From NCBI GenBank assembly GCA_963828735.1, contig CAWHFW010000005.1, positions 2,233,261 to 2,297,260 on the forward strand: a DNA stretch of 64,000 nucleotides, read 5' to 3'. Both the position numbers and the translations under genes were made by a program. The notes below the pieces were generated by a model. That model saw nothing but the letters and a program-made list of their open reading frames with translations, did no database searches and was not told where the DNA came from. Numbering within the stretch: position 1 is the first letter of the stretch; the number at the start of each line of letters is the position of its first letter. This DNA comes from an uncultured Gemmatimonadales bacterium. GTDB taxonomy: Bacteria; Gemmatimonadota; Gemmatimonadetes; Gemmatimonadales; GWC2-71-9. Below, one piece after another: positions 13,026 through 22,969 of this stretch.

Positions 13026-15950
13026 CTAATCTAACACCGTCGTGACGAGGCCAGCCTCGCGGAGAAACAGGTCGCCGCCGGTCGGGCGTCCGTCGCGCTG
13101 CGACGAGCGCGTGAGGACCAGCCGGTCCTTGGCGCGGGTCATGCCCACGTAGAGCAGGCGGCGCGCCTCCTGGATCTCCTTCCACTCCTCGTTGTCGAGG
13201 GCGACCGCGCCGGGGATCTGATTGTCCTCGACGCCCACGATGTAGACCCGCGAGAACTCGAGGCCCTTGGTCGCGTGGAGCGTGAGCAGGCTCACACGCC
13301 GGTCGTCGGTTCGACTTCCGTCGCTCCGTGACAGCGCGACGCGGTTGAGCAGCAGGGCGATACTCTCGGCCAGGGACGGCGCGGTGCTCGAGTCAACCAG
13401 CGCTTCGAGCCGGGCCGCCGACGGCGGGTACCGCTCGGCCACGGAGCGGTCGGTCCGCATCCGCTCCATCAGGCGCTGGCCGCCCAAGCGCTCGACCAGC
13501 TCCTCTGCGGATGGGGCATCCGTGCCGGCCGCCTGCTCGGCGTAGGCCTCGAGACACCCGCTGTAACGGCCCAGGGCCGCGGGCAGGGCGACGTCCCGGA
13601 GGACTCGTTCCTCCGGGGTCGGCTCCGCGGGCGCATCGATCGCGAGCGCGAGGCCGAGCCACCCGAGCAGCTGCACCAGTGCGGTCTTCCTCGCGCGTAC
13701 CAGGCGCAGCTCGCCCAGGTGCCGGGCCACGCCGACGAGCGTGGTCGCGTCGTCGATCGCGTGGTGGGACCGGCCGCGCGAGACGCCGAACCGGTGCGCG
13801 AGGTCCTCGAGGCGCGCGCTCTCGTCCATGAGCGAGCGCGCGAGCGGCAGCGTGTCGAAGAAGACCAGCTCCTCGACGCCCGGAAGGCCGGAGGCCAGGC
13901 GGCGGAGCACGGGGACGTCGAACGTGTGGCCGTTGTGCGCCACCAGCAGGTCTTCGCCCACGAACTCGCGGAACGCGGGCCACACGTCCGCGAACGGCGG
14001 CTGATCGCACACATCGGACTCGCGATAGCCGTGCACGGCCGTCGCTCGCGGCGTGATGGGCCGCGACGGTCGGACGAGGCGCTGAAACTGGTCCACGACG
14101 ACCCGGCCTCGCACCCGCACCGCCGCCAGCTCCACGACATCGCACTCGCCGGCGTCCATCTCGGTCGTCTCGAGGTCGAACGCGACGTAGTCTTGCAGCG
14201 GATCGGTGAGCCCGCGGCACTGCAGAAGCTGCAGTGCCTTGAAGATCAGGAAGGGGCGTGCGCTGCCGGCGCGAAGCACGAGATCGCCGGGGGCGGGCCG
14301 ATTGCCGGGCGCGAGCCGGTGAACGCGGTCGCCGACGACGGCACGGAGCATCGGCAGCAGCGCGAGCTCGAGTCCGCGGTCCGGCTCGAGCCAGACGGTG
14401 GCGCCGGCGTCCCGGGTCTCCCGCAGCCGGTCGGCCAGGTGCGTCGCGCCCGGCACCTCGGCCGGATCCGTGAGCTCCGCCGCACGCTCGTCCAGGGGAT
14501 TGCGATACCGGCCGAGGCGCTCCGACAGCAATGCGTCCACGAGATCGCGGATGGACTCGTGGGTGCGGCTCAGGCCGGCCAGGTTCTCGACGTGAAAGAC
14601 GAATCGCCACGCGTGCCTGGCGTCCGGATCGCCGCGCATCGTCCGGGCGAATACCCGAAGTCCGGTGAGCAGGTCGAGAGTGCGGTGGGTGGCGCGGATC
14701 CGGCTCACCAGCGCGGGCGGGAGGACCTGCTCGGCGAACGCCTCGACCCGCAACGGATCGTCGGGCGCCTGAATGATGCGCAGGCTCGCCACGATCGCCC
14801 CGATCAGCTCGTCGTCCAGCAGCGCCTGGCCGCGCGCCATGAGGCAGGGGATGCCGGCCTCGATGAAGCGGGTCTCGAGCCGCTGCCCGATGCGGTGGGA
14901 CCGGTAGAGCACGCCGTATTCCCCCCAGTCGAGCGCCGAGGCCGCCCGATCGCGCAGCAGGTCGGACACCACCCACTCGGCCTCGCAGGTTTCGTCGGGA
15001 AAGGCGGCCGCGGTGACGCAGTGGTCCGACTCGCGGGTGGCCTCGAGCCGCTTCTCGAACAGGCCCGGGTTCCGGGTGACCAGCTGGCGGGCGGTCTCGA
15101 AGATCTGGCGCGAGCACCGGCGGTTGAGATCGAGGATGATGGGCTCGGCGATGCCGAAGTCGTCCCGGAAGCGGCCCAGGATAGCCGGATCGGCGCCGGT
15201 CCAGGAGAAGATGGACTGCTCGTCATCGCCCACGGCGAAGCAGTTGCGGTGCCGGGCGGCCAGCTCGGTCACGACCTCGTACTGAGCCAGGCTCAAGTCC
15301 TGGAACTCGTCCACCAGGACGTAGTCCCAGCGATTTCTCACGTCCGCGCGAACGTCCTCGCGGCTCCGGAGGAGCTCGCCCGCGCGCGCGATCAAGTCGT
15401 CGTAGTCCAGCAGATTCCTGAGCCGGAGGGCGTCGGTGTAGGCGGCGAACAGGTCCTGGTCGCCGGGGGTCAGCGGCACGTGCTGGAGGCGATGCCGGCC
15501 GAACTGGAGCAGGAGCGCCCCGTGGCGCTCGGGCCGGACACGGAGACGGCGCAGGACCCGCCGCTGGTAGTCGTCGTCGGCGATCCCGAAACCGCGTTTC
15601 AGGCCCGCGGCCGCCGCGTGATCCCGCAGGAGGCCGAAGCAGAGCGCGTGCAGCGTTCCGCGGGTGACGTCCTCGGCGAGCGGGCCGATCTCCCGCTGGA
15701 GCCGGGAGGCGATCTCGTCGGCGGCCTTGTTGGTGAAGGTGACCGCGCAGATGCGGCGTGGGTCGAAGCCGTGCCAGGCGATCAGCCGCGCGATGCGCGC
15801 GATGAGGCAGTAGGTCTTGCCGGCGCCCGGGCCGGCGACGACGAGCACCGGGCCGAGCGGAGCCTCGATGGCCTGGCGCTGCGCGGAGGACGGGTCGAGG
15901 GCCAGGCTCAGTCCTCCGCCGGTCCGAGCGCCGCGAGGGTGGCGCGCCAC
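13026..15950 (-). CDS. UvrD/PcrA-family helicase with inserted DEDDh 3'-5' exonuclease domain
   Basis: Helicase motifs AGPGAGKT, DEFQD, GDDEQSIF and C-terminal LYVGMTRAKDRL. Residues about 588-750 carry exonuclease motifs FDLETT, HNGHTFDVPVL and HHAIDDA. Confidence 0.85.
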   Translation of the reverse strand: MARHPRGARTGGGLSLALDPSSAQRQAIEAPLGPVLVVAGPGAGKTYCLIARIARLIAWHGFDPRRICAVTFTNKAADEIASRLQREIGPLAEDVTRGTLHALCFGLLRDHAAAAGLKRGFGIADDDYQRRVLRRLRVRPERHGALLLQFGRHRLQHVPLTPGDQDLFAAYTDALRLRNLLDYDDLIARAGELLRSREDVRADVRNRWDYVLVDEFQDLSLAQYEVVTELAARHRNCFAVGDDEQSIFSWTGADPAILGRFRDDFGIAEPIILDLNRRCSRQIFETARQLVTRNPGLFEKRLEATRESDHCVTAAAFPDETCEAEWVVSDLLRDRAASALDWGEYGVLYRSHRIGQRLETRFIEAGIPCLMARGQALLDDELIGAIVASLRIIQAPDDPLRVEAFAEQVLPPALVSRIRATHRTLDLLTGLRVFARTMRGDPDARHAWRFVFHVENLAGLSRTHESIRDLVDALLSERLGRYRNPLDERAAELTDPAEVPGATHLADRLRETRDAGATVWLEPDRGLELALLPMLRAVVGDRVHRLAPGNRPAPGDLVLRAGSARPFLIFKALQLLQCRGLTDPLQDYVAFDLETTEMDAGECDVVELAAVRVRGRVVVDQFQRLVRPSRPITPRATAVHGYRESDVCDQPPFADVWPAFREFVGEDLLVAHNGHTFDVPVLRRLASGLPGVEELVFFDTLPLARSLMDESARLEDLAHRFGVSRGRSHHAIDDATTLVGVARHLGELRLVRARKTALVQLLGWLGLALAIDAPAEPTPEERVLRDVALPAALGRYSGCLEAYAEQAAGTDAPSAEELVERLGGQRLMERMRTDRSVAERYPPSAARLEALVDSSTAPSLAESIALLLNRVALSRSDGSRTDDRRVSLLTLHATKGLEFSRVYIVGVEDNQIPGAVALDNEEWKEIQEARRLLYVGMTRAKDRLVLTRSSQRDGRPTGGDLFLREAGLVTTVLD

Positions 15951-17983
15951 TGGTCCACCGTCTCCGCCGGCGCGCGACAGCTCGTGCCGGTGCAGGCGTA
16001 TGCGCGCGGCGCCCGGCCCGCGGCCACCATGCCGGCCATGGCCTGGGGTAGGGCCACGCCGTTCGTGTCGCCGGGCGTGAGTCGCCGCACGAGGCGACGC
16101 GGCACGAAGGTGCCGAGCGCGTCGCGGTGCATCCGGTCCGCGACGGCATCGCCGGGCTCGCCGACGACGACCAGGTGAGTCGCGGGCGAGAGGTGCCAGT
16201 CCACGGCGAGCAGATACGCCGCCGCATACAATCCCAAGTCGGCGGCGCGGCCGGCAAAGGCGCGGATCAGGGCGTGCCCGCGCTCGCGCCAGCGCGCCTC
16301 GCCGGTGTGCTCATGGAGGCGCGCCGCCACCACCCCCGCGACGCCGTTCGGTGACGGCGTCGGCGCGTCCTGCACCGGCTTGGCCCGCGCCGGCAACAGG
16401 CCCGGCTCGGAGCCCCGCGCGCGGGCCGTGTCGAACAGCCCGCCGGCCTCCGGGTCCCAGTAGTCCGTCCACACCCGATCCATGATGGCCGAGGCCCAGG
16501 CCAGCCAGACGCCGTCGCCCGTTGCCTCGTAGGCGTCGAGCGCGGCCGCGGCGACCTGGACCTGATCGTCGAGCAGTCCCGCGACGCCGCCAGGCGTGTG
16601 GGTCACGGCGTCCTCGGTCAGCCGCTCGTCACGGATCCTGGCGAGGCTCAGGATGGCGTGGGCGCGGGCCTCCTCGTCGCCCAGCACCGCGCCGGCGCGG
16701 AGCATCGCCGCTGCCATCATGGCGTTCCAGTTCGTGTACCGCGTGCGATCCACGAACGGCGCGGGCCGGGCGCGGCGCGCGTCCAGGAGCTTGCCCTGCG
16801 CCCGCTCGAGGTCGGCGCGCACGTCGGACTCGCCGCGGCCCAGGCGCGTCGCGATCGCGCCGACTGTCGCGGCGATGAACAGTACGTTCTTCGACGGGTT
16901 GTGGTGCATCTCCCCGGCGGTGCCGATGTCGTAATAGGCCGCCGCCACCTCGAGCTCCTCGGGCGTAAGCGCCGCGGCGGCTTCCTCACGGGTCCAGGTG
17001 AAGTAGTCGCCGTCGTCGTCGAGTCCCACGTCGGCGTCCTGGCTCGCGGCGTAGCCACCCGCGGCATCGGATGCCACCTCGCGGACCCAGCGGACGATCC
17101 CGCGCGCGGTCGCCGCGTACTCCTCGGTGCCGAGGAGTGCGTAGGCGTCAGCGTAGACCTTGAGCAGCTCGGAGTTGTCGTAGGCCATCTTCTCGAAGTG
17201 CGGCACGATCCACTCGGCGTCGACGCTGTAGCGGTGAAACCCACCGCCGAGTTGGTCATAGACGCCGCCGCGCGCCATGCCGTGCAGCGTGCGATCGAGG
17301 ATCGTGCGGACCGCATCGGACGGCTGGTCCCACCAGCGGTGCAGCAGCAGCGTCATCGCGCCGGGATGGGGGAACTTGGGTGCGCGCCCGAACCCGCCGT
17401 TCTCCGGATCGAACACGCGCGTCATGCCGGTCACGGCCTCGCCGAGCATGTCGAGCGACGGCTCGCCCGGCGCCGCCTCGTTGAGGTCGTCGCCCACGAC
17501 ACGGCGCACGGCCTCTGCCTGCGACTGCACCTGGCCGCGACGGGAGCGGTACGCGTCGAGCACGCTCTCGAGCACGGTCCGGAAGCCGGGGCGTCCGTGC
17601 GCCCCGTCGGGCGGGAAGTACGTTCCGCCGTAGAAAACCTCACCCACCGGCGTCAGAAACGCGGTCAGGGGCCAGCCACCCTGCCGGGTGAGCGCCTGCA
17701 CCGCGCGCTGGTAGCGCGCGTCGACGTCGGGTCGCTCGTCGCGGTCCACCTTGATGCAGACGAAGTGCTCGTTCAGGAACTCCGCCAGCGCCGGATTCTC
17801 GTACGACTCGCCGTCCATGACGTGGCACCAGTGACACCAGACTGCCCCGATGTCGAGCAGCACCGGACGATCCTGCGCCTTGGCCACGGCGAAGGCCTCA
17901 TCGCCCCAGGGGAACCAGTGAATGGGCTGGTGCGCGGCAGATTGGAGGTAGGCGGAGCCGGCGGCGGCGAGGCGATTCGTCAT
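15908..17983 (-). CDS. thioredoxin-domain (DUF255/YyaL-like) protein with alpha/alpha-toroid domain
   Basis: ATG 17983 (MTNRLAAAGSAYL...). WFPWGDEAF...VLLDIGAVWCHWCHVM motif. Long six-hairpin-like C-terminal part. Confidence 0.85.
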   Translation of the reverse strand: MTNRLAAAGSAYLQSAAHQPIHWFPWGDEAFAVAKAQDRPVLLDIGAVWCHWCHVMDGESYENPALAEFLNEHFVCIKVDRDERPDVDARYQRAVQALTRQGGWPLTAFLTPVGEVFYGGTYFPPDGAHGRPGFRTVLESVLDAYRSRRGQVQSQAEAVRRVVGDDLNEAAPGEPSLDMLGEAVTGMTRVFDPENGGFGRAPKFPHPGAMTLLLHRWWDQPSDAVRTILDRTLHGMARGGVYDQLGGGFHRYSVDAEWIVPHFEKMAYDNSELLKVYADAYALLGTEEYAATARGIVRWVREVASDAAGGYAASQDADVGLDDDGDYFTWTREEAAAALTPEELEVAAAYYDIGTAGEMHHNPSKNVLFIAATVGAIATRLGRGESDVRADLERAQGKLLDARRARPAPFVDRTRYTNWNAMMAAAMLRAGAVLGDEEARAHAILSLARIRDERLTEDAVTHTPGGVAGLLDDQVQVAAAALDAYEATGDGVWLAWASAIMDRVWTDYWDPEAGGLFDTARARGSEPGLLPARAKPVQDAPTPSPNGVAGVVAARLHEHTGEARWRERGHALIRAFAGRAADLGLYAAAYLLAVDWHLSPATHLVVVGEPGDAVADRMHRDALGTFVPRRLVRRLTPGDTNGVALPQAMAGMVAAGRAPRAYACTGTSCRAPAETVDQWRATLAALGPAED

Positions 17984-17998
17984 GGGATGAAGGTAGCG

Positions 17999-18027
17999 AA
18001 AAGGGCGCACCTTCGTGCGCCCTTTTC
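17999..18027 (-). terminator. intrinsic terminator (symmetric, could act in both directions)
   Basis: Sequence AAAA-GGGCGCAC-CTTC-GTGCGCCC-TTTT: perfect 8-bp GC stem (18003-18010 / 18015-18022) and 4-nt loop, flanked by A and T runs. Lies just downstream of the cytochrome c gene. Confidence 0.75.
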
Positions 18028-18048
18028 GTCACCTCGCGCCAGGGAGCG

Positions 18049-18432
18049 TCAGGAGGGCGCCTTGTGGCTCAGTGAGTAGACGTAGGCCGCGACCGCCTTG
18101 ACCTCGTCGTCGGTGATGCTGGATCCGCCCTTGGGCGGCATCATGATGCCGCTCTTGGACTCGGCCTGCGGCACGCCGGTCGTGATCTGCTTGACGATCG
18201 CGTCGTACGAGCCGTCGCTGTGGAGCCATTCGGCATCGGTGAGGTTCGGCCCGACCGCGCCCTGCGCGTTGGCGCCGTGGCACGCGTAGCAGTTGCCCTT
18301 GCTGTGGAAGATGCTGTCGCCTTGGGCGATCGCGGCAGGCGTGACGCCGGCCGGGGCCTGCGCCATGGCGGGGCGGGTCCCCATGACGGCGCCAAACGCG
18401 AGCAAGAGACCGAAGCGAGTCCGGATGTCCAT
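18049..18432 (-). CDS. class I c-type cytochrome
   Basis: Signal peptide, heme motif CYACH, distal Met region (IMMPPKG). Confidence 0.85.
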   Translation of the reverse strand: MDIRTRFGLLLAFGAVMGTRPAMAQAPAGVTPAAIAQGDSIFHSKGNCYACHGANAQGAVGPNLTDAEWLHSDGSYDAIVKQITTGVPQAESKSGIMMPPKGGSSITDDEVKAVAAYVYSLSHKAPS

Positions 18433-19889: not shown

Positions 19890-21528
19890 TCAGGGGCCGG
19901 GTGTCGCTGGCCGAATCTCCACGCGGCGGTTGGCGGCGCGTCCGCGCGGGGTGGTATCACCGGTGAGCGGCACCGACGAGCCATAGCCGCGCGCCACGAT
20001 CTGCTGGTAGCTGACGCCTTTCACGACCAGGTAGTCGCGAACCGCCTCTGCCTGAAGCTGGGTGAGGCGGTTGTCATCGCTCGTCGAGCCGCTGTTGTCG
20101 GTATGGGCGCCGATCTCGACCCGCGAGGCGGGATTCGCGATGAGCAGATCCGCCAGCGAATCCAGGGCGACGTAGGAGGACGTCTGAAGCCGTGCCGTGC
20201 CCGAGGCGAAGGTGACGTTCGGTATCACGCCCGACGCGATCACCAGGGCGCCGGCCTTCGGCACCGTGACGTTCGGATGTTGGATCGGTCGTCCGGTGGT
20301 GTCGATGGGCGGCCGGGCGGCAGCACCGCTGGGGGGAGGCTGCGCCGCGTTCGGCTGCGAGACGCCGGCGCGTGGCGCTGCCTGGGTCGGGGCTGCTGCG
20401 GCGGCCCCCGCCCGCGCGGGCGGAGGCGCACCCGACGGCGCGCCCTGGTTGGCCGCCTGGCCCTGGGCGCAGCCCGACGAGTTCACGGCGGCGCCGGGCT
20501 GTGTCCGCGGGCAGTGATCGAGCCCGTCGAGCACGCCGTCACCATCCTCGTCGCCCGGGCAACCGAGGGCATCCACCGTGGCCCCGCGAGGCGTGTCCGA
20601 GCAGCGGTCGAGGCCGTCGGGGATCTGGTCGCCGTCGCTGTCCTTGGGGCAGCCGCGCGGGTCCACCAGCACGCCCGCGGGCGTGTCGGGGCACCGATCG
20701 AGGCCGTCGGGGATGTTGTCGCCGTCGGTGTCCTGCGAGCATCCGCGGGCGTCCACGGCGGCGCCGGCCACGGTGGTCGGGCATCGGTCGATGCCGTCGG
20801 GCACCCCGTCGCCGTCGCCGTCGCTCGGGCAGCCGCGCGAGTCCACCGACGCGCCGCTCGGCGTATCGGAGCACCGGTCGTGGTTGTCGAGCACGCCGTC
20901 CCCGTCGGTATCGAGGATGGGCTTGCTGCCAAGCATGAAGCTCACCCCGGCATTCACGCCGAAGTTGGACAGCGTCACGCCCGCGGCGTTCTCCCTGGGC
21001 CTTGCTCTTGTTCCGGTTGTAGAGGCCCTCGACGCGCGCGAGGATCGTGGGCGTCAGCCCGACCCGGAAGCCCGCGCCCCCCAGGAACGCGCCGCTGCTG
21101 CCGCAGATCGGATTGTCGGGGCTCGCGACGCTGGGGCAGCTCCCGCCGTACTTGGTCGACCCACCGCCCGCCTTCAGATAGAAGGTGGTGCTGGACCCGA
21201 TCAGGAAATTGTAGAGCGCCGAGATGCCGAACGTCTTGACGCTGACGCTCTCGTCCCCGGTCTTGCTGTTGGGCGACGAGAACGCGCCCTCCACCTCGAC
21301 CGAGAAGTTGAGCGGCAGCCACAGGCCGACCCGCGCGACGCCCCCGGGCGCGCCGTCCAGTTGGGTGTCCGAATCGAATGACTGGTAGGCGCCGGCGGCG
21401 CTCAGCTCGACGAGATACTTCCGCTGCTGGGCGGCGCCGACGCGCGCACACGCCACGACGAGGGCGAGGCCGGCCAGGAGTCCGACTCCCCCGGCCCAGC
21501 CCCTGAAGGGCTGCTGGTAGGTTCGCAT
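19890..21528 (-). pseudogene. OmpA-family outer membrane protein with thrombospondin type-3 repeats, split by one +1 frame break
   Basis: N-terminal signal and beta-barrel lie in the frame of ORF 20539..21528 (to ...LYNRNKSKAQGE). The last barrel strands, five TSP3 repeats and the OmpA_C domain (EIGAHTDNSGS...NRRVEI) lie in the frame of ORF 19890..20978. The frames meet at CCCAGGG around 20985-20995. 1639 nt is 546 codons plus 1. Confidence 0.8.
20483..20912 (-). repeat. intragenic thrombospondin type-3 (calcium-binding DxDxDG) repeats
   Basis: Five copies of D(T/S)DGDx(V/I)xDxxDxCxxTxxGxxVDxxGC, also visible as DNA-level periodicity. Confidence 0.8.
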
Positions 21529-21660
21529 GGATCAAATAGATACGCCGTCCGGGATGACCTGACAAGGAGCCGCGTCACCAACCCGCGCTCGCCCTTGGCA
21601 GCGACTCACAGGACCGCTACGATTCGCGCACTCCCCCTCGTGCCGGTTCAGGAGAAGCGC

Positions 21661-21888
21661 ATGCGCGTGGTCATCGAGTACTGCGTTGTTTGAAACTACC
21701 AGCCTCGAGCCACCAGTTTGGCGGCTGAGCTGAAAGAGCAGTTCCCGGAGGCGGAAGTCCGTCTGGTTCCCTCGTCGGGCGGGGTGTTCGAAGTGACCGT
21801 GGACGGCAACCTCATCTATTCCAAGCGCGCGCTCCGCCGGCATCCCGAGCCGGGGGAGGTCCTGAAACTGATTCCCCGCTCGAGCTGA
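21661..21888 (+). CDS. Rdx-family (SelW/SelT/SelH-like) selenoprotein, Sec encoded by UGA at 21691..21693
   Basis: Not in the ORF track. GGAGA SD at 21650. Reads MRVVIEYCVV-U-NYQPRATSLAAELKEQFPEAEVRLVPSSGGVFEVTVDGNLIYSKRALRRHPEPGEVLKLIPRSS. CxxU sits at the family's redox motif position, and coding bias continues across the TGA. Confidence 0.8.
21700..21732 (+). promoter_or_regulatory. candidate bacterial SECIS hairpin
   Basis: Starts 7 nt after the UGA. Pairs 21700-21702/21730-21732, 21704-21706/21727-21729, 21708-21711/21723-21726, 21713-21714/21720-21721. Apical loop AGUUU, with two single-nt bulges. Confidence 0.5.
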
Positions 21889-21889
21889 C

Positions 21890-22969
21890 ATGCGCATCGC
21901 CATCTCCACCGGCGGCGGCGACGCCCCCGGGTTGAACGCGGTAATCCGTGCCGTGGTCGTGTCGGCGCACCACCGCGGGTGGAAGTGTTACGGCATCCAA
22001 CGCGGCTACGAAGGCCTGCTCTCGTTCAACGGTGTGGTCCCGCTGGGCCTCGGCGAGGTCCGCGGGATCACCCATCTGGGCGGCACCATCCTGGGGACCA
22101 CGAACCGCGGCAATCCTTTCCACTACGTGACACGCAACGAGCAGGGCGAGGAGATCGAGCGCGACCGCTCCGACGACCTCGTGGCCGCCTTCCAGGCGAG
22201 CGGGTTCGAGGCGCTGGTGTCGATCGGCGGCGACGGCAGCCTCCAGATCTCGCACGATCTCTGGCGGAAGGGACTCCCCGTCGTCTGCGTGCCCAAGACG
22301 ATCGACAACGATGTGAGCGGCACGCAGCGGACCTTCGGATTCGATACGGCCGTGAGCACCGCGACCGAGGCCATCGACAAGCTGCATTCGACGGCGGAGA
22401 GTCACGACCGGGTCATCGTGGTCGAGCTCATGGGCCGGTACGCGGGCTGGATCGCGCTCTACAGCGGCCTCTCCGGCAGCGCCGATGTGATCCTCCTGCC
22501 GGAAATCCCGTTCGACATCGCCAAGGTGTGCGAGAAGATCCGGAGCCGCGAGGCGGCCGGGCGCCGCTTCAGCATCGTGGTCGTGGCGGAGGGTGCCCGG
22601 CCGAAGGATGGCACCATCGAGCTGCTCGAGCGCCGGGGCCCCGGCACTGTCGACCGGCTCGGCGGGATCGCCAGCAAGGTGGCACGAGCCGTCTCGCACG
22701 ACACCGGCAAGGAGACGCGAACGCTCGTGCTCGGACATCTGCAGCGTGGCGGCTCCCCGACCACGTACGACCGGCTGCTCGGGCTCCGGTTCGGGGCCGC
22801 CGCCGTACGGGCGATCGCCGACCAGGCCTTCGGGACGATGGTGGGGCTCAACGGGCAGGACATCACGCGGGTGCCCCTCGAGAACGTGGTCGGTCGCGCC
22901 AAGAATGTTCCGCTCGACTCCGATACGATCCGCACCGCACGCGATCTGGGAATCAGTCTGGGTGACTGA
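21890..22969 (+). CDS. pfkA: ATP-dependent 6-phosphofructokinase
   Basis: MRIAISTGGGDAPGLNAVIR, SIGGDGS, PKTIDND, VELMGRYAG and GHLQRGG motifs. Confidence 0.92.
   Translation: MRIAISTGGGDAPGLNAVIRAVVVSAHHRGWKCYGIQRGYEGLLSFNGVVPLGLGEVRGITHLGGTILGTTNRGNPFHYVTRNEQGEEIERDRSDDLVAAFQASGFEALVSIGGDGSLQISHDLWRKGLPVVCVPKTIDNDVSGTQRTFGFDTAVSTATEAIDKLHSTAESHDRVIVVELMGRYAGWIALYSGLSGSADVILLPEIPFDIAKVCEKIRSREAAGRRFSIVVVAEGARPKDGTIELLERRGPGTVDRLGGIASKVARAVSHDTGKETRTLVLGHLQRGGSPTTYDRLLGLRFGAAAVRAIADQAFGTMVGLNGQDITRVPLENVVGRAKNVPLDSDTIRTARDLGISLGD

Follow-up and report, generated by a model that had tools for sequence, protein, structure and literature searches.

A SelW-like reading frame interrupted by a TGA codon

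In the genome of an uncultured Gemmatimonadales bacterium (assembly GCA_963828735.1), a 64-kb stretch of contig CAWHFW010000005.1, referred to throughout as the window, contains on its plus strand a small gene for a SelW-like protein of the Rdx family, which most probably carries selenocysteine (Sec) at an in-frame UGA codon (Table 1). Its frame comprises the ATG at 21661, from which ten sense codons are counted, a TGA, a further 64 sense codons, and a closing TGA. The conceptual translation is thus MRVVIEYCVV*NYQPRATSLAAELKEQFPEAEVRLVPSSGGVFEVTVDGNLIYSKRALRRHPEPGEVLKLIPRSS*, with asterisks at the two TGA codons, or, with Sec counted, a product of 75 amino acids (aa) that reads MRVVIEYCVV-U-NYQPRA...PRSS. 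In the list of open reading frames (ORFs), the site is represented by an antisense 125-aa ORF (21532-21909) and by a plus-strand 56-aa ORF starting with TTG (21718-21888), the latter being the truncated form that gene callers report. The statements about the sequence itself in the original prediction, namely the Shine-Dalgarno (SD) motif, the ATG at 21661, the TGA at 21691-21693, the stop at 21886, the length of 75 aa, and the antisense ORF, were all verified.

Table 1. Coordinates, within the 64-kb window, of the SelW-like gene, its decoding elements, and the adjoining features
Feature	Position	Strand	Remarks
Promoter-like TTGGCA-17 nt-TACGAT	21595..21623	+	Intergenic, shared with the divergent outer-membrane-protein gene; weak, consensus match alone
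SD-like AGGAGA	21650..21655	+	5 nt upstream of the ATG
SelW-like (Rdx family) gene, most probably a selenoprotein gene	21661..21888	+	75 codons plus stop; redox motif C8-V-V-U11
In-frame TGA, most probably read as Sec (residue 11)	21691..21693	+	
Full hairpin as folded in the window	21700..21732	+	Lower stem, 21700-21705 with 21728-21732, clade-specific
Conserved core of the SECIS-type hairpin	21706..21727	+	C16:G37 pair, bulged invariant G17 (21707), seven stem positions, 5-nt loop
True stop codon, also TGA	21886..21888	+	No SECIS (Sec insertion sequence) after it; 1 nt before the pfk ATG
Phosphofructokinase gene (pfk)	21890..22969	+	Pfam PFK 1e-102; TIGR02483 433.9 bits

Family and fold of the product

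For profile and structure searches, Sec was written as Cys in the 75-aa product. The prediction that the read-through translation would be recognized by Rdx/SelW-SelT-SelH profiles was borne out by strong full-length matches, all of them above the cut-offs of the respective models: 85.0 bits to Pfam Rdx (PF10262; cut-off 22.6; E-value 4.3e-24; positions 1-72 of 74), 69.4 bits to NCBIfam TIGR02174 CXXU_selWTH (cut-off 34.2), and 105.4 bits to the equivalog NF041051, 'SelT/SelW/SelH family (seleno)protein' (cut-off 88). Among proteins of known structure, sequence matches were obtained to PDB entries 2fa8, 3dex, 2ljk (MIEN1), 2obk, 2oka, 2ojl, 2p0g, and 2npb (mouse SelW). The CxxC of 2fa8, 3dex, and 2ljk aligns column for column with C8-V-V-U11, such that U11, encoded by the TGA at 21691, falls on the second Cys of the motif.

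A structural model was built with AlphaFold2 from a natural Cys-form ortholog (P0003) that is 65% identical to the window protein. The model has a mean predicted local distance difference test score (pLDDT) of 85.1 and consists of a strand (residues 2-8), the CxxC loop, a helix (14-27), three strands (32-38, 43-47, and 50-54), and a final helix (66-74), with C8 closing strand 1 and C11 in the loop preceding helix 1. This order, strand-helix-strand-strand-strand-helix, is that of the thioredoxin-like fold of the Rdx family. When the model was compared with the PDB by Foldseek, the top 23 structures were all SelW-related, with template modelling (TM) scores of 0.74-0.89, followed by thioredoxins and glutaredoxins at about 0.55 only. 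Given that sequence, motif, and fold agree, membership of the product in the Rdx/SelW-like family is established.

Conservation of the TGA codon and of the coding sequence around it

A search of one genome per species returned 527 relatives, of which the best 80 were taken and, together with the window, make up the 81 sequences compared here. These 80 are metagenome-assembled genomes (MAGs) of Gemmatimonadales or Gemmatimonadota, except for one contig binned as Methylomirabilota. The contig in question (L016; JAKEHP010000462.1, 1.7 kb), from a MAG labelled Candidatus Methylomirabilota, carries an ortholog, 69% identical, with TGA, SECIS, and a downstream phosphofructokinase (PFK) gene; because the contig is short and its synteny typical of Gemmatimonadales, a binning error seems more likely than lateral transfer.

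The original prediction had proposed that relatives be inspected for conservation downstream of the TGA and for TGA or a Cys codon at this position. Conservation is present on both sides of the codon, which is TGA in all 80 related genomes and in the window (81/81), and never TAA, TAG, or a sense codon. A start codon (72 ATG and nine GTG) is found exactly ten codons upstream of the TGA in every one of the 81 sequences, and the peptide I-E/Q-Y-C-V-V-[TGA]-N-Y-x-P-R-A is kept across the stop among relatives. Over the nine codons before the TGA, nucleotide diversity at the first, second, and third codon positions is 0.20, 0.16, and 0.45 (81 sequences); over codons 27-71, it is 0.25, 0.16, and 0.54; the 30 nucleotides (nt) of leader before the start codon show a flat diversity of 0.67. 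Since diversity is codon-periodic on both sides of the TGA and flat in the leader, the upstream ten-codon piece is translated in the frame of the body. An SD-like motif between -18 and -4 was detected in just 32 of the 81 orthologs and is, therefore, not universal.

These data bear on the view that a Cys-type Rdx gene was inactivated by a nonsense change from TGC or TGT to TGA and that nothing functional is made. A single base does separate TGA from TGT, the TGT form exists, and gene callers see a stop at 21691. Nevertheless, a pseudogene would be expected to decay rather than to maintain compensatory changes in a hairpin (described below), and the TGA is shared by 81 of 81 sequences from 80 different species, with codon-periodic purifying selection on both sides and a start codon kept 10 codons upstream. 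One recently spread sequence is excluded by protein identities of 59-80% among the orthologs. Inactivation is thus scarcely conceivable as an account of this gene.

The Cys form is represented by a metagenomic relative (P0003, the modelled ortholog; locus L084, 564-800), which has TGT at the Sec codon and, set against the TGA found elsewhere, makes up a classical Sec/Cys pair. It is the sole Cys-form close relative found, it is known from a single 1.2-kb Logan contig, and its SECIS sequence is still intact (CCGGGCCGCCGGTCTGGCGGCCGAG). The co-occurrence of TGT with an intact SECIS suggests either a very recent conversion of Sec to Cys or a single-read error.

An alternative that takes the annotation at face value is that the real product is the 56-aa protein from the TTG at 21718, and that the first 10 codons constitute a separate leader peptide or are untranslated. 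The TTG is indeed present in the window, and a protein of this length agrees with how the JGI and NCBI pipelines annotate the gene and its relatives. However, the codon corresponding to 21718 is a start in only 17 of the 81 orthologs and CTG in the other 64, and in 32 loci one has to go 22 codons beyond the TGA to reach an in-frame start. In addition, the short protein would begin beyond strand 1 and the entire CxxU motif, where the family profile is most conserved, and leader and body are always in one frame with exactly one TGA between them. A functional 56-aa product is, on these grounds, extremely improbable.

Equally, the antisense 125-aa ORF, although the longest uninterrupted ORF at the site, has a negligible chance of being the real gene with the plus-strand reading a coincidence. 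Long spurious antisense ORFs are expected at 69.5% guanine plus cytosine (GC), the value for the window, and this one has no Pfam match. The most variable positions among orthologs are plus-strand third positions, that is, antisense first positions, and it is the plus-strand product that scores E-values of 1e-24 to 1e-30 against curated families.

A conserved, covarying hairpin downstream of the UGA

In the 45 nt from the UGA, the hairpin at 21700-21732 is the minimum-free-energy fold, at -16.8 kcal/mol, with a z-score of -3.4 in this context and none of 200 shuffles equal to it. Its upper stem is formed by 21708-21714 with 21720-21726, including in the window an A-C mismatch at 21712/21722, and is capped by the apical loop AGUUU (21715-21719), in which 21716 is G and 21717 is U.

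For comparison among relatives, the 48 nt from the TGA were aligned in the 81 sequences, gap-free, and columns are numbered accordingly. The structure given in Table 1 pairs 82% of cells, as compared with 19-42% when the 3' arm is slid by one to three columns, and its covariation score of 0.142 is not reached by any of 500 shuffles (mean 0.074). The pair 18:36 consists of the third bases of an Arg CGN and an Ala GCN codon, where changes are synonymous in both; in distinct sequences, it is G-C in 42, A-U in 28, and C-G in two, with six mismatches. At this pair, a neighbour-joining tree from which the hairpin columns were masked out requires a minimum of 11 independent switches from one paired state to another; as the tree was built from about 180 nt, this count is an approximation, yet there were clearly many events. 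Double changes at 22:32 and 23:31, seen in two relatives (L011 and L037), preserve pairing while altering amino acids. Third-position diversity is also lower across the SECIS codons than in the body of the gene (0.34 vs 0.54). Conservation does not extend over the whole of the fold, as the lower-stem pairs 12:40 and 15:38 are paired in under half of the relatives. Thus, of the interrupted hairpin originally proposed for 21700-21732, the fold is confirmed and the upper core at 21706-21727 is conserved and covarying, whereas the lower stem pairs in a minority of sequences only.

The identity of this core was judged against the model of bacterial SECIS elements given in a 2026 review (PMC13188914), which specifies an upper stem of 4-16 bp capped by a loop of 3-9 nt, G as the first or second nucleotide of that loop, with G or U next in most cases, a distance of 16-37 nt from the UGA to the apical loop, and a folding energy no higher than -7.5 kcal/mol. 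The core has a 5-nt loop on seven stem positions (six paired in the window, seven in most relatives); the loop AGUUU has G second and U third; 21 nt (21694-21714) separate the UGA from the loop; and the energy is the -16.8 kcal/mol given above. The claim that a SECIS lies here is, therefore, well founded, since the core agrees with the published model in all four respects and covaries. Across the 81 sequences, the loop is GGUCU in 54, AGUUU in 15, AGGCU in five, AGUCU in four, and something else in three; it follows the pattern N-G-[U/G]-N-U, and the G at position 2 is invariant. No match of the element to Rfam was found at gathering or permissive thresholds.

A direct comparison was made with the fdhF element of Escherichia coli, taken from NC_000913. 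In both, the hairpin follows the UGA directly on its 3' side, a G-U is exposed in a small apical loop, a nucleotide is bulged on the 5' side beneath the upper stem, and the stability is similar (-14.9 kcal/mol for fdhF and -16.8 kcal/mol here). The fdhF apex reads CAGGUCUGC and the Gemmatimonadales consensus CCGGUCUGG, with the hexamer GGUCUG common to both; this apical GGUCUG is identical to that of fdhF in 54 of the 81 sequences. They differ in that the loop begins 21 nt after the UGA here and 18 nt after it in fdhF, and in that the bulged nucleotide is G here and U in fdhF. Moreover, the window itself has the loop AGUUU rather than GGUCU and one A-C mismatch in the stem.

Probable decoding of the UGA as selenocysteine

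The best explanation for these data is that a functional gene at 21661-21888 encodes a SelW-like selenoprotein of 75 residues, the UGA being decoded as Sec by means of the SECIS hairpin; we put the probability of this at roughly 0.93. By analogy with the bacterial Sec pathway and from what is known of the family, dependence on SelB and tRNA-Sec, incorporation of selenium, and redox chemistry would be expected. In this scheme, the ribosome would start at the ATG at 21661 and would not terminate at the UGA at 21691, where the downstream hairpin (core 21706-21727, loop G21716/U21717) would act as a bacterial SECIS and bind the elongation factor SelB carrying Sec-tRNA(Sec), so that selenocysteine becomes residue 11. 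Translation would then continue to 21886, where the UGA is not followed by a SECIS, and end there. In the product, C8-x-x-U11 is predicted to lie in the loop that joins strand 1 to helix 1, and the protein most likely cycles between a selenol/thiol and a selenenylsulfide form of C8 and U11, presumably as a small thiol-selenol oxidoreductase acting on a partner protein or a low-molecular-weight thiol.

Several observations weigh against this interpretation. The genes selA, selB, and selD and that for tRNA-Sec were not found in the 64-kb window, nor was Sec machinery found in the 80 ortholog loci, which cover up to 20 kb each (within 10 kb); consequently, the Sec machinery of the organism is assumed. 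Literature searches on the use of Sec in Gemmatimonadetes/Gemmatimonadota returned nothing relevant. With regard to the hairpin, its energy is unremarkable in a 63-nt context (z = -0.3), there is the A-C mismatch in the window's own upper stem, and RNAalifold by itself favoured a weak alternative register. This register, of 4 bp and -4.6 kcal/mol, shows no covariation and was rejected in favour of the 82%-paired, covarying one. The z-score in the longer context is to be expected because the DNA is 69.5% GC. Single-sequence thermodynamics is thus equivocal, and the case that the hairpin is more than chance rests on the comparison with relatives, in which the TGA is shared by all 81 sequences and the stem covaries.

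As for the machinery, tblastn of E. coli SelA, SelB, and SelD gave no match in the window, and no tRNA gene of any kind was found in it. In the ortholog loci, the sole tblastn match, of 30% to the SelB GTPase domain, is in a 417-aa ORF (L065) that is too short for SelB. A tRNA-SeC with anticodon tca was called by ARAGORN at 17840-17940 of one locus (L021), 7.7 kb from the ortholog, and was dismissed as a false positive; the call sits inside a 396-aa IspH/LytB-like ORF and has no Rfam tRNA-Sec match at E-values up to 10. It should be noted that this call could mislead an automated search for Sec machinery. The Sec genes are not linked to the SelW-like gene.

That no Sec machinery was found in the window or the ortholog loci is also what speaks for recoding of the UGA as something other than Sec, either by read-through inserting Trp, Cys, or Arg or under a reassigned code, and some pipelines give W at this codon in relatives. 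A reassigned code is contradicted by the use of TGA in the window, where it is the commonest stop, ending 26 of 42 crude gene calls and the SelW-like gene itself; the genetic code is, therefore, not reassigned. Furthermore, the codon falls on the redox Cys when aligned with the family, in which those members known to contain UGA are selenoproteins, and the hairpin shows the specific features of a SelB-binding SECIS, including the fdhF-like GGUCUG loop. Non-Sec recoding is, accordingly, very improbable. It is possible that some Cys is inserted through the Sec pathway under selenium limitation, by the same mechanism. A crude scan of the window for other Sec-type TGA codons gave antisense-frame artefacts only, with thresholds that missed the SelW-like gene itself.

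Relation to known Rdx proteins and state of annotation

The SelW-like family and its UGA mechanism have been known since 2004-2005, and the window gene is a further ordinary member. In the Sargasso Sea data, no other selenoprotein family was as abundant as SelW-like (PMC1088965), which is also counted as a high-confidence prokaryotic selenoprotein (PMC13188914). With bacterial SelW-like selenoproteins (PF10262, TIGR02174, and NF041051), the gene shares the family by profile score, the position of CxxU, a small single domain (70-75 aa, as in NF041051), and a SECIS in the coding region right after the UGA. It differs from the known ones in that it belongs to a Gemmatimonadales group for which no published selenoproteome was found, and which is almost uniformly of the Sec form, with TGA in the best 80 genome matches of 527. 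The group is also distinguished by a conserved operon with pfk and by public annotations that are truncated.

Cys-form Rdx proteins of known structure (Atu0228, 2FA8; SAV_2001, 3DEX; 2OBK; 2OKA; 2OJL; 2P0G) have the redox motif in the same place, are 26-40% identical to the product, and match the model of the Cys-form ortholog with TM scores of 0.81-0.89. They differ in carrying CxxC instead of CxxU, in their length of about 100 aa, and in extra termini, and their function is likewise not known. Mammalian selenoprotein W (2NPB) and MIEN1 (2LJK), the CxxC of which forms a disulfide reversibly, at a potential of -225 mV (PMC3527542), resemble the product in the Rdx fold and in the position of the motif. 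Identity to them, in contrast, is only about 27-28%, and shared cellular partners are not expected. In eukaryotic SelW, the SECIS lies in the 3'-untranslated region and is of an unrelated type (PMC1088965).

The expectation that standard gene callers would miss or truncate the gene is amply confirmed. Most of the best 120 of 232 homologs are 48-64 aa long and start after the TGA, and these short proteins include NCBI entries from Gemmatimonadota MAGs. A 56-aa JGI protein (P0002) is identical to the truncated ORF of the window and is labelled 'selenoprotein W-related protein'. Three database proteins (P0001, P0004, and P0005) read 'CVVW', the TGA having been translated as Trp; for P0001, the TGA was confirmed in its own DNA. 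The gene call for P0001 disagrees with the translation of its own contig (L085, 526-736), and overall, metagenome annotation of this gene family is inconsistent, the gene being truncated, W-substituted, or absent.

Linkage to phosphofructokinase and genomic surroundings

The pfk operon is the only fresh aspect of the finding. In the window, stop and start are joined as TGAcATG (21886-21892). In 66 of the 80 related genomes, the gene that follows directly on the same strand encodes PFK (58-92% identical); the two genes overlap by 4 nt at start and stop in 24 genomes, and in about 30 others the spacing is -1 to +3 nt. The neighbour on the upstream side, by comparison, is recognizable in about half of the genomes only. 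Adjacency at this frequency, with overlap or tight spacing, points to co-translation of the SelW-like protein and PFK, and the SelW-like gene is probably co-transcribed with pfk and translationally coupled to it. As to a promoter, one site resembling the consensus was found (Table 1) where 0.1 would be expected from shuffles, and promoter rules for the phylum are not established.

A literature search for a link between the Rdx family and phosphofructokinase found none. PFK or its pathway is, speculatively, a candidate client of the SelW-like protein. A more specific proposal, which we regard as unlikely, is that the selenoprotein is a dedicated redox partner of PFK in Gemmatimonadales, with CxxU reducing or oxidizing a regulatory cysteine of the enzyme; what speaks for it is that a 4-nt overlap or a spacing of 0-3 nt in most genomes suggests equimolar, coupled synthesis. 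In one locus (L068, 6395-7561), the SelW-like frame runs without a stop into a PFK from which about 50 N-terminal residues, the GGDxPG region among them, are missing. As the PFK N-terminus is lost, a deletion, a misassembly, or a pseudogene is more likely here than a genuine fusion of SelW and PFK.

Upstream and divergent, a gene for an outer-membrane beta-barrel protein occupies 20539-21528 on the minus strand. Further out, genes for a DUF255 thioredoxin-domain protein, a cytochrome c, a glycosyl hydrolase, a prolyl oligopeptidase, and a DoxD-like protein were recognized. The first two, both of redox type, lie 3-6 kb upstream, within 15908-18432 on the minus strand; the DUF255/DsbH domain, which is thioredoxin-like, forms the N-terminus of a 700-aa protein, and the c-type cytochrome has 127 aa. 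In a 974-aa protein encoded at 13026-15950, also on the minus strand, UvrD-type helicase domains are accompanied by an RNase T/DnaQ-like exonuclease domain, located internally at residues 589-740.

Implications for selenium use in Gemmatimonadales

The understanding of Sec decoding is unchanged by this gene, the mechanism being the textbook bacterial one. Its presence suggests that the organism and its order carry a full Sec pathway. Hundreds of orthologs from Gemmatimonadales MAGs have been deposited as 48-64-aa fragments without the active site, and consequently, estimates of the selenoproteome and of selenium dependence are too low for a common soil phylum. Near-total fixation of the Sec form, together with the tight linkage to pfk, provides a testable lead on what bacterial SelW-like proteins do. 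If the selenoprotein were indeed a redox partner of PFK, glycolytic flux would be tied to redox or selenium status, and with PFK a bacterial Rdx-family protein would for the first time have a physiological client.

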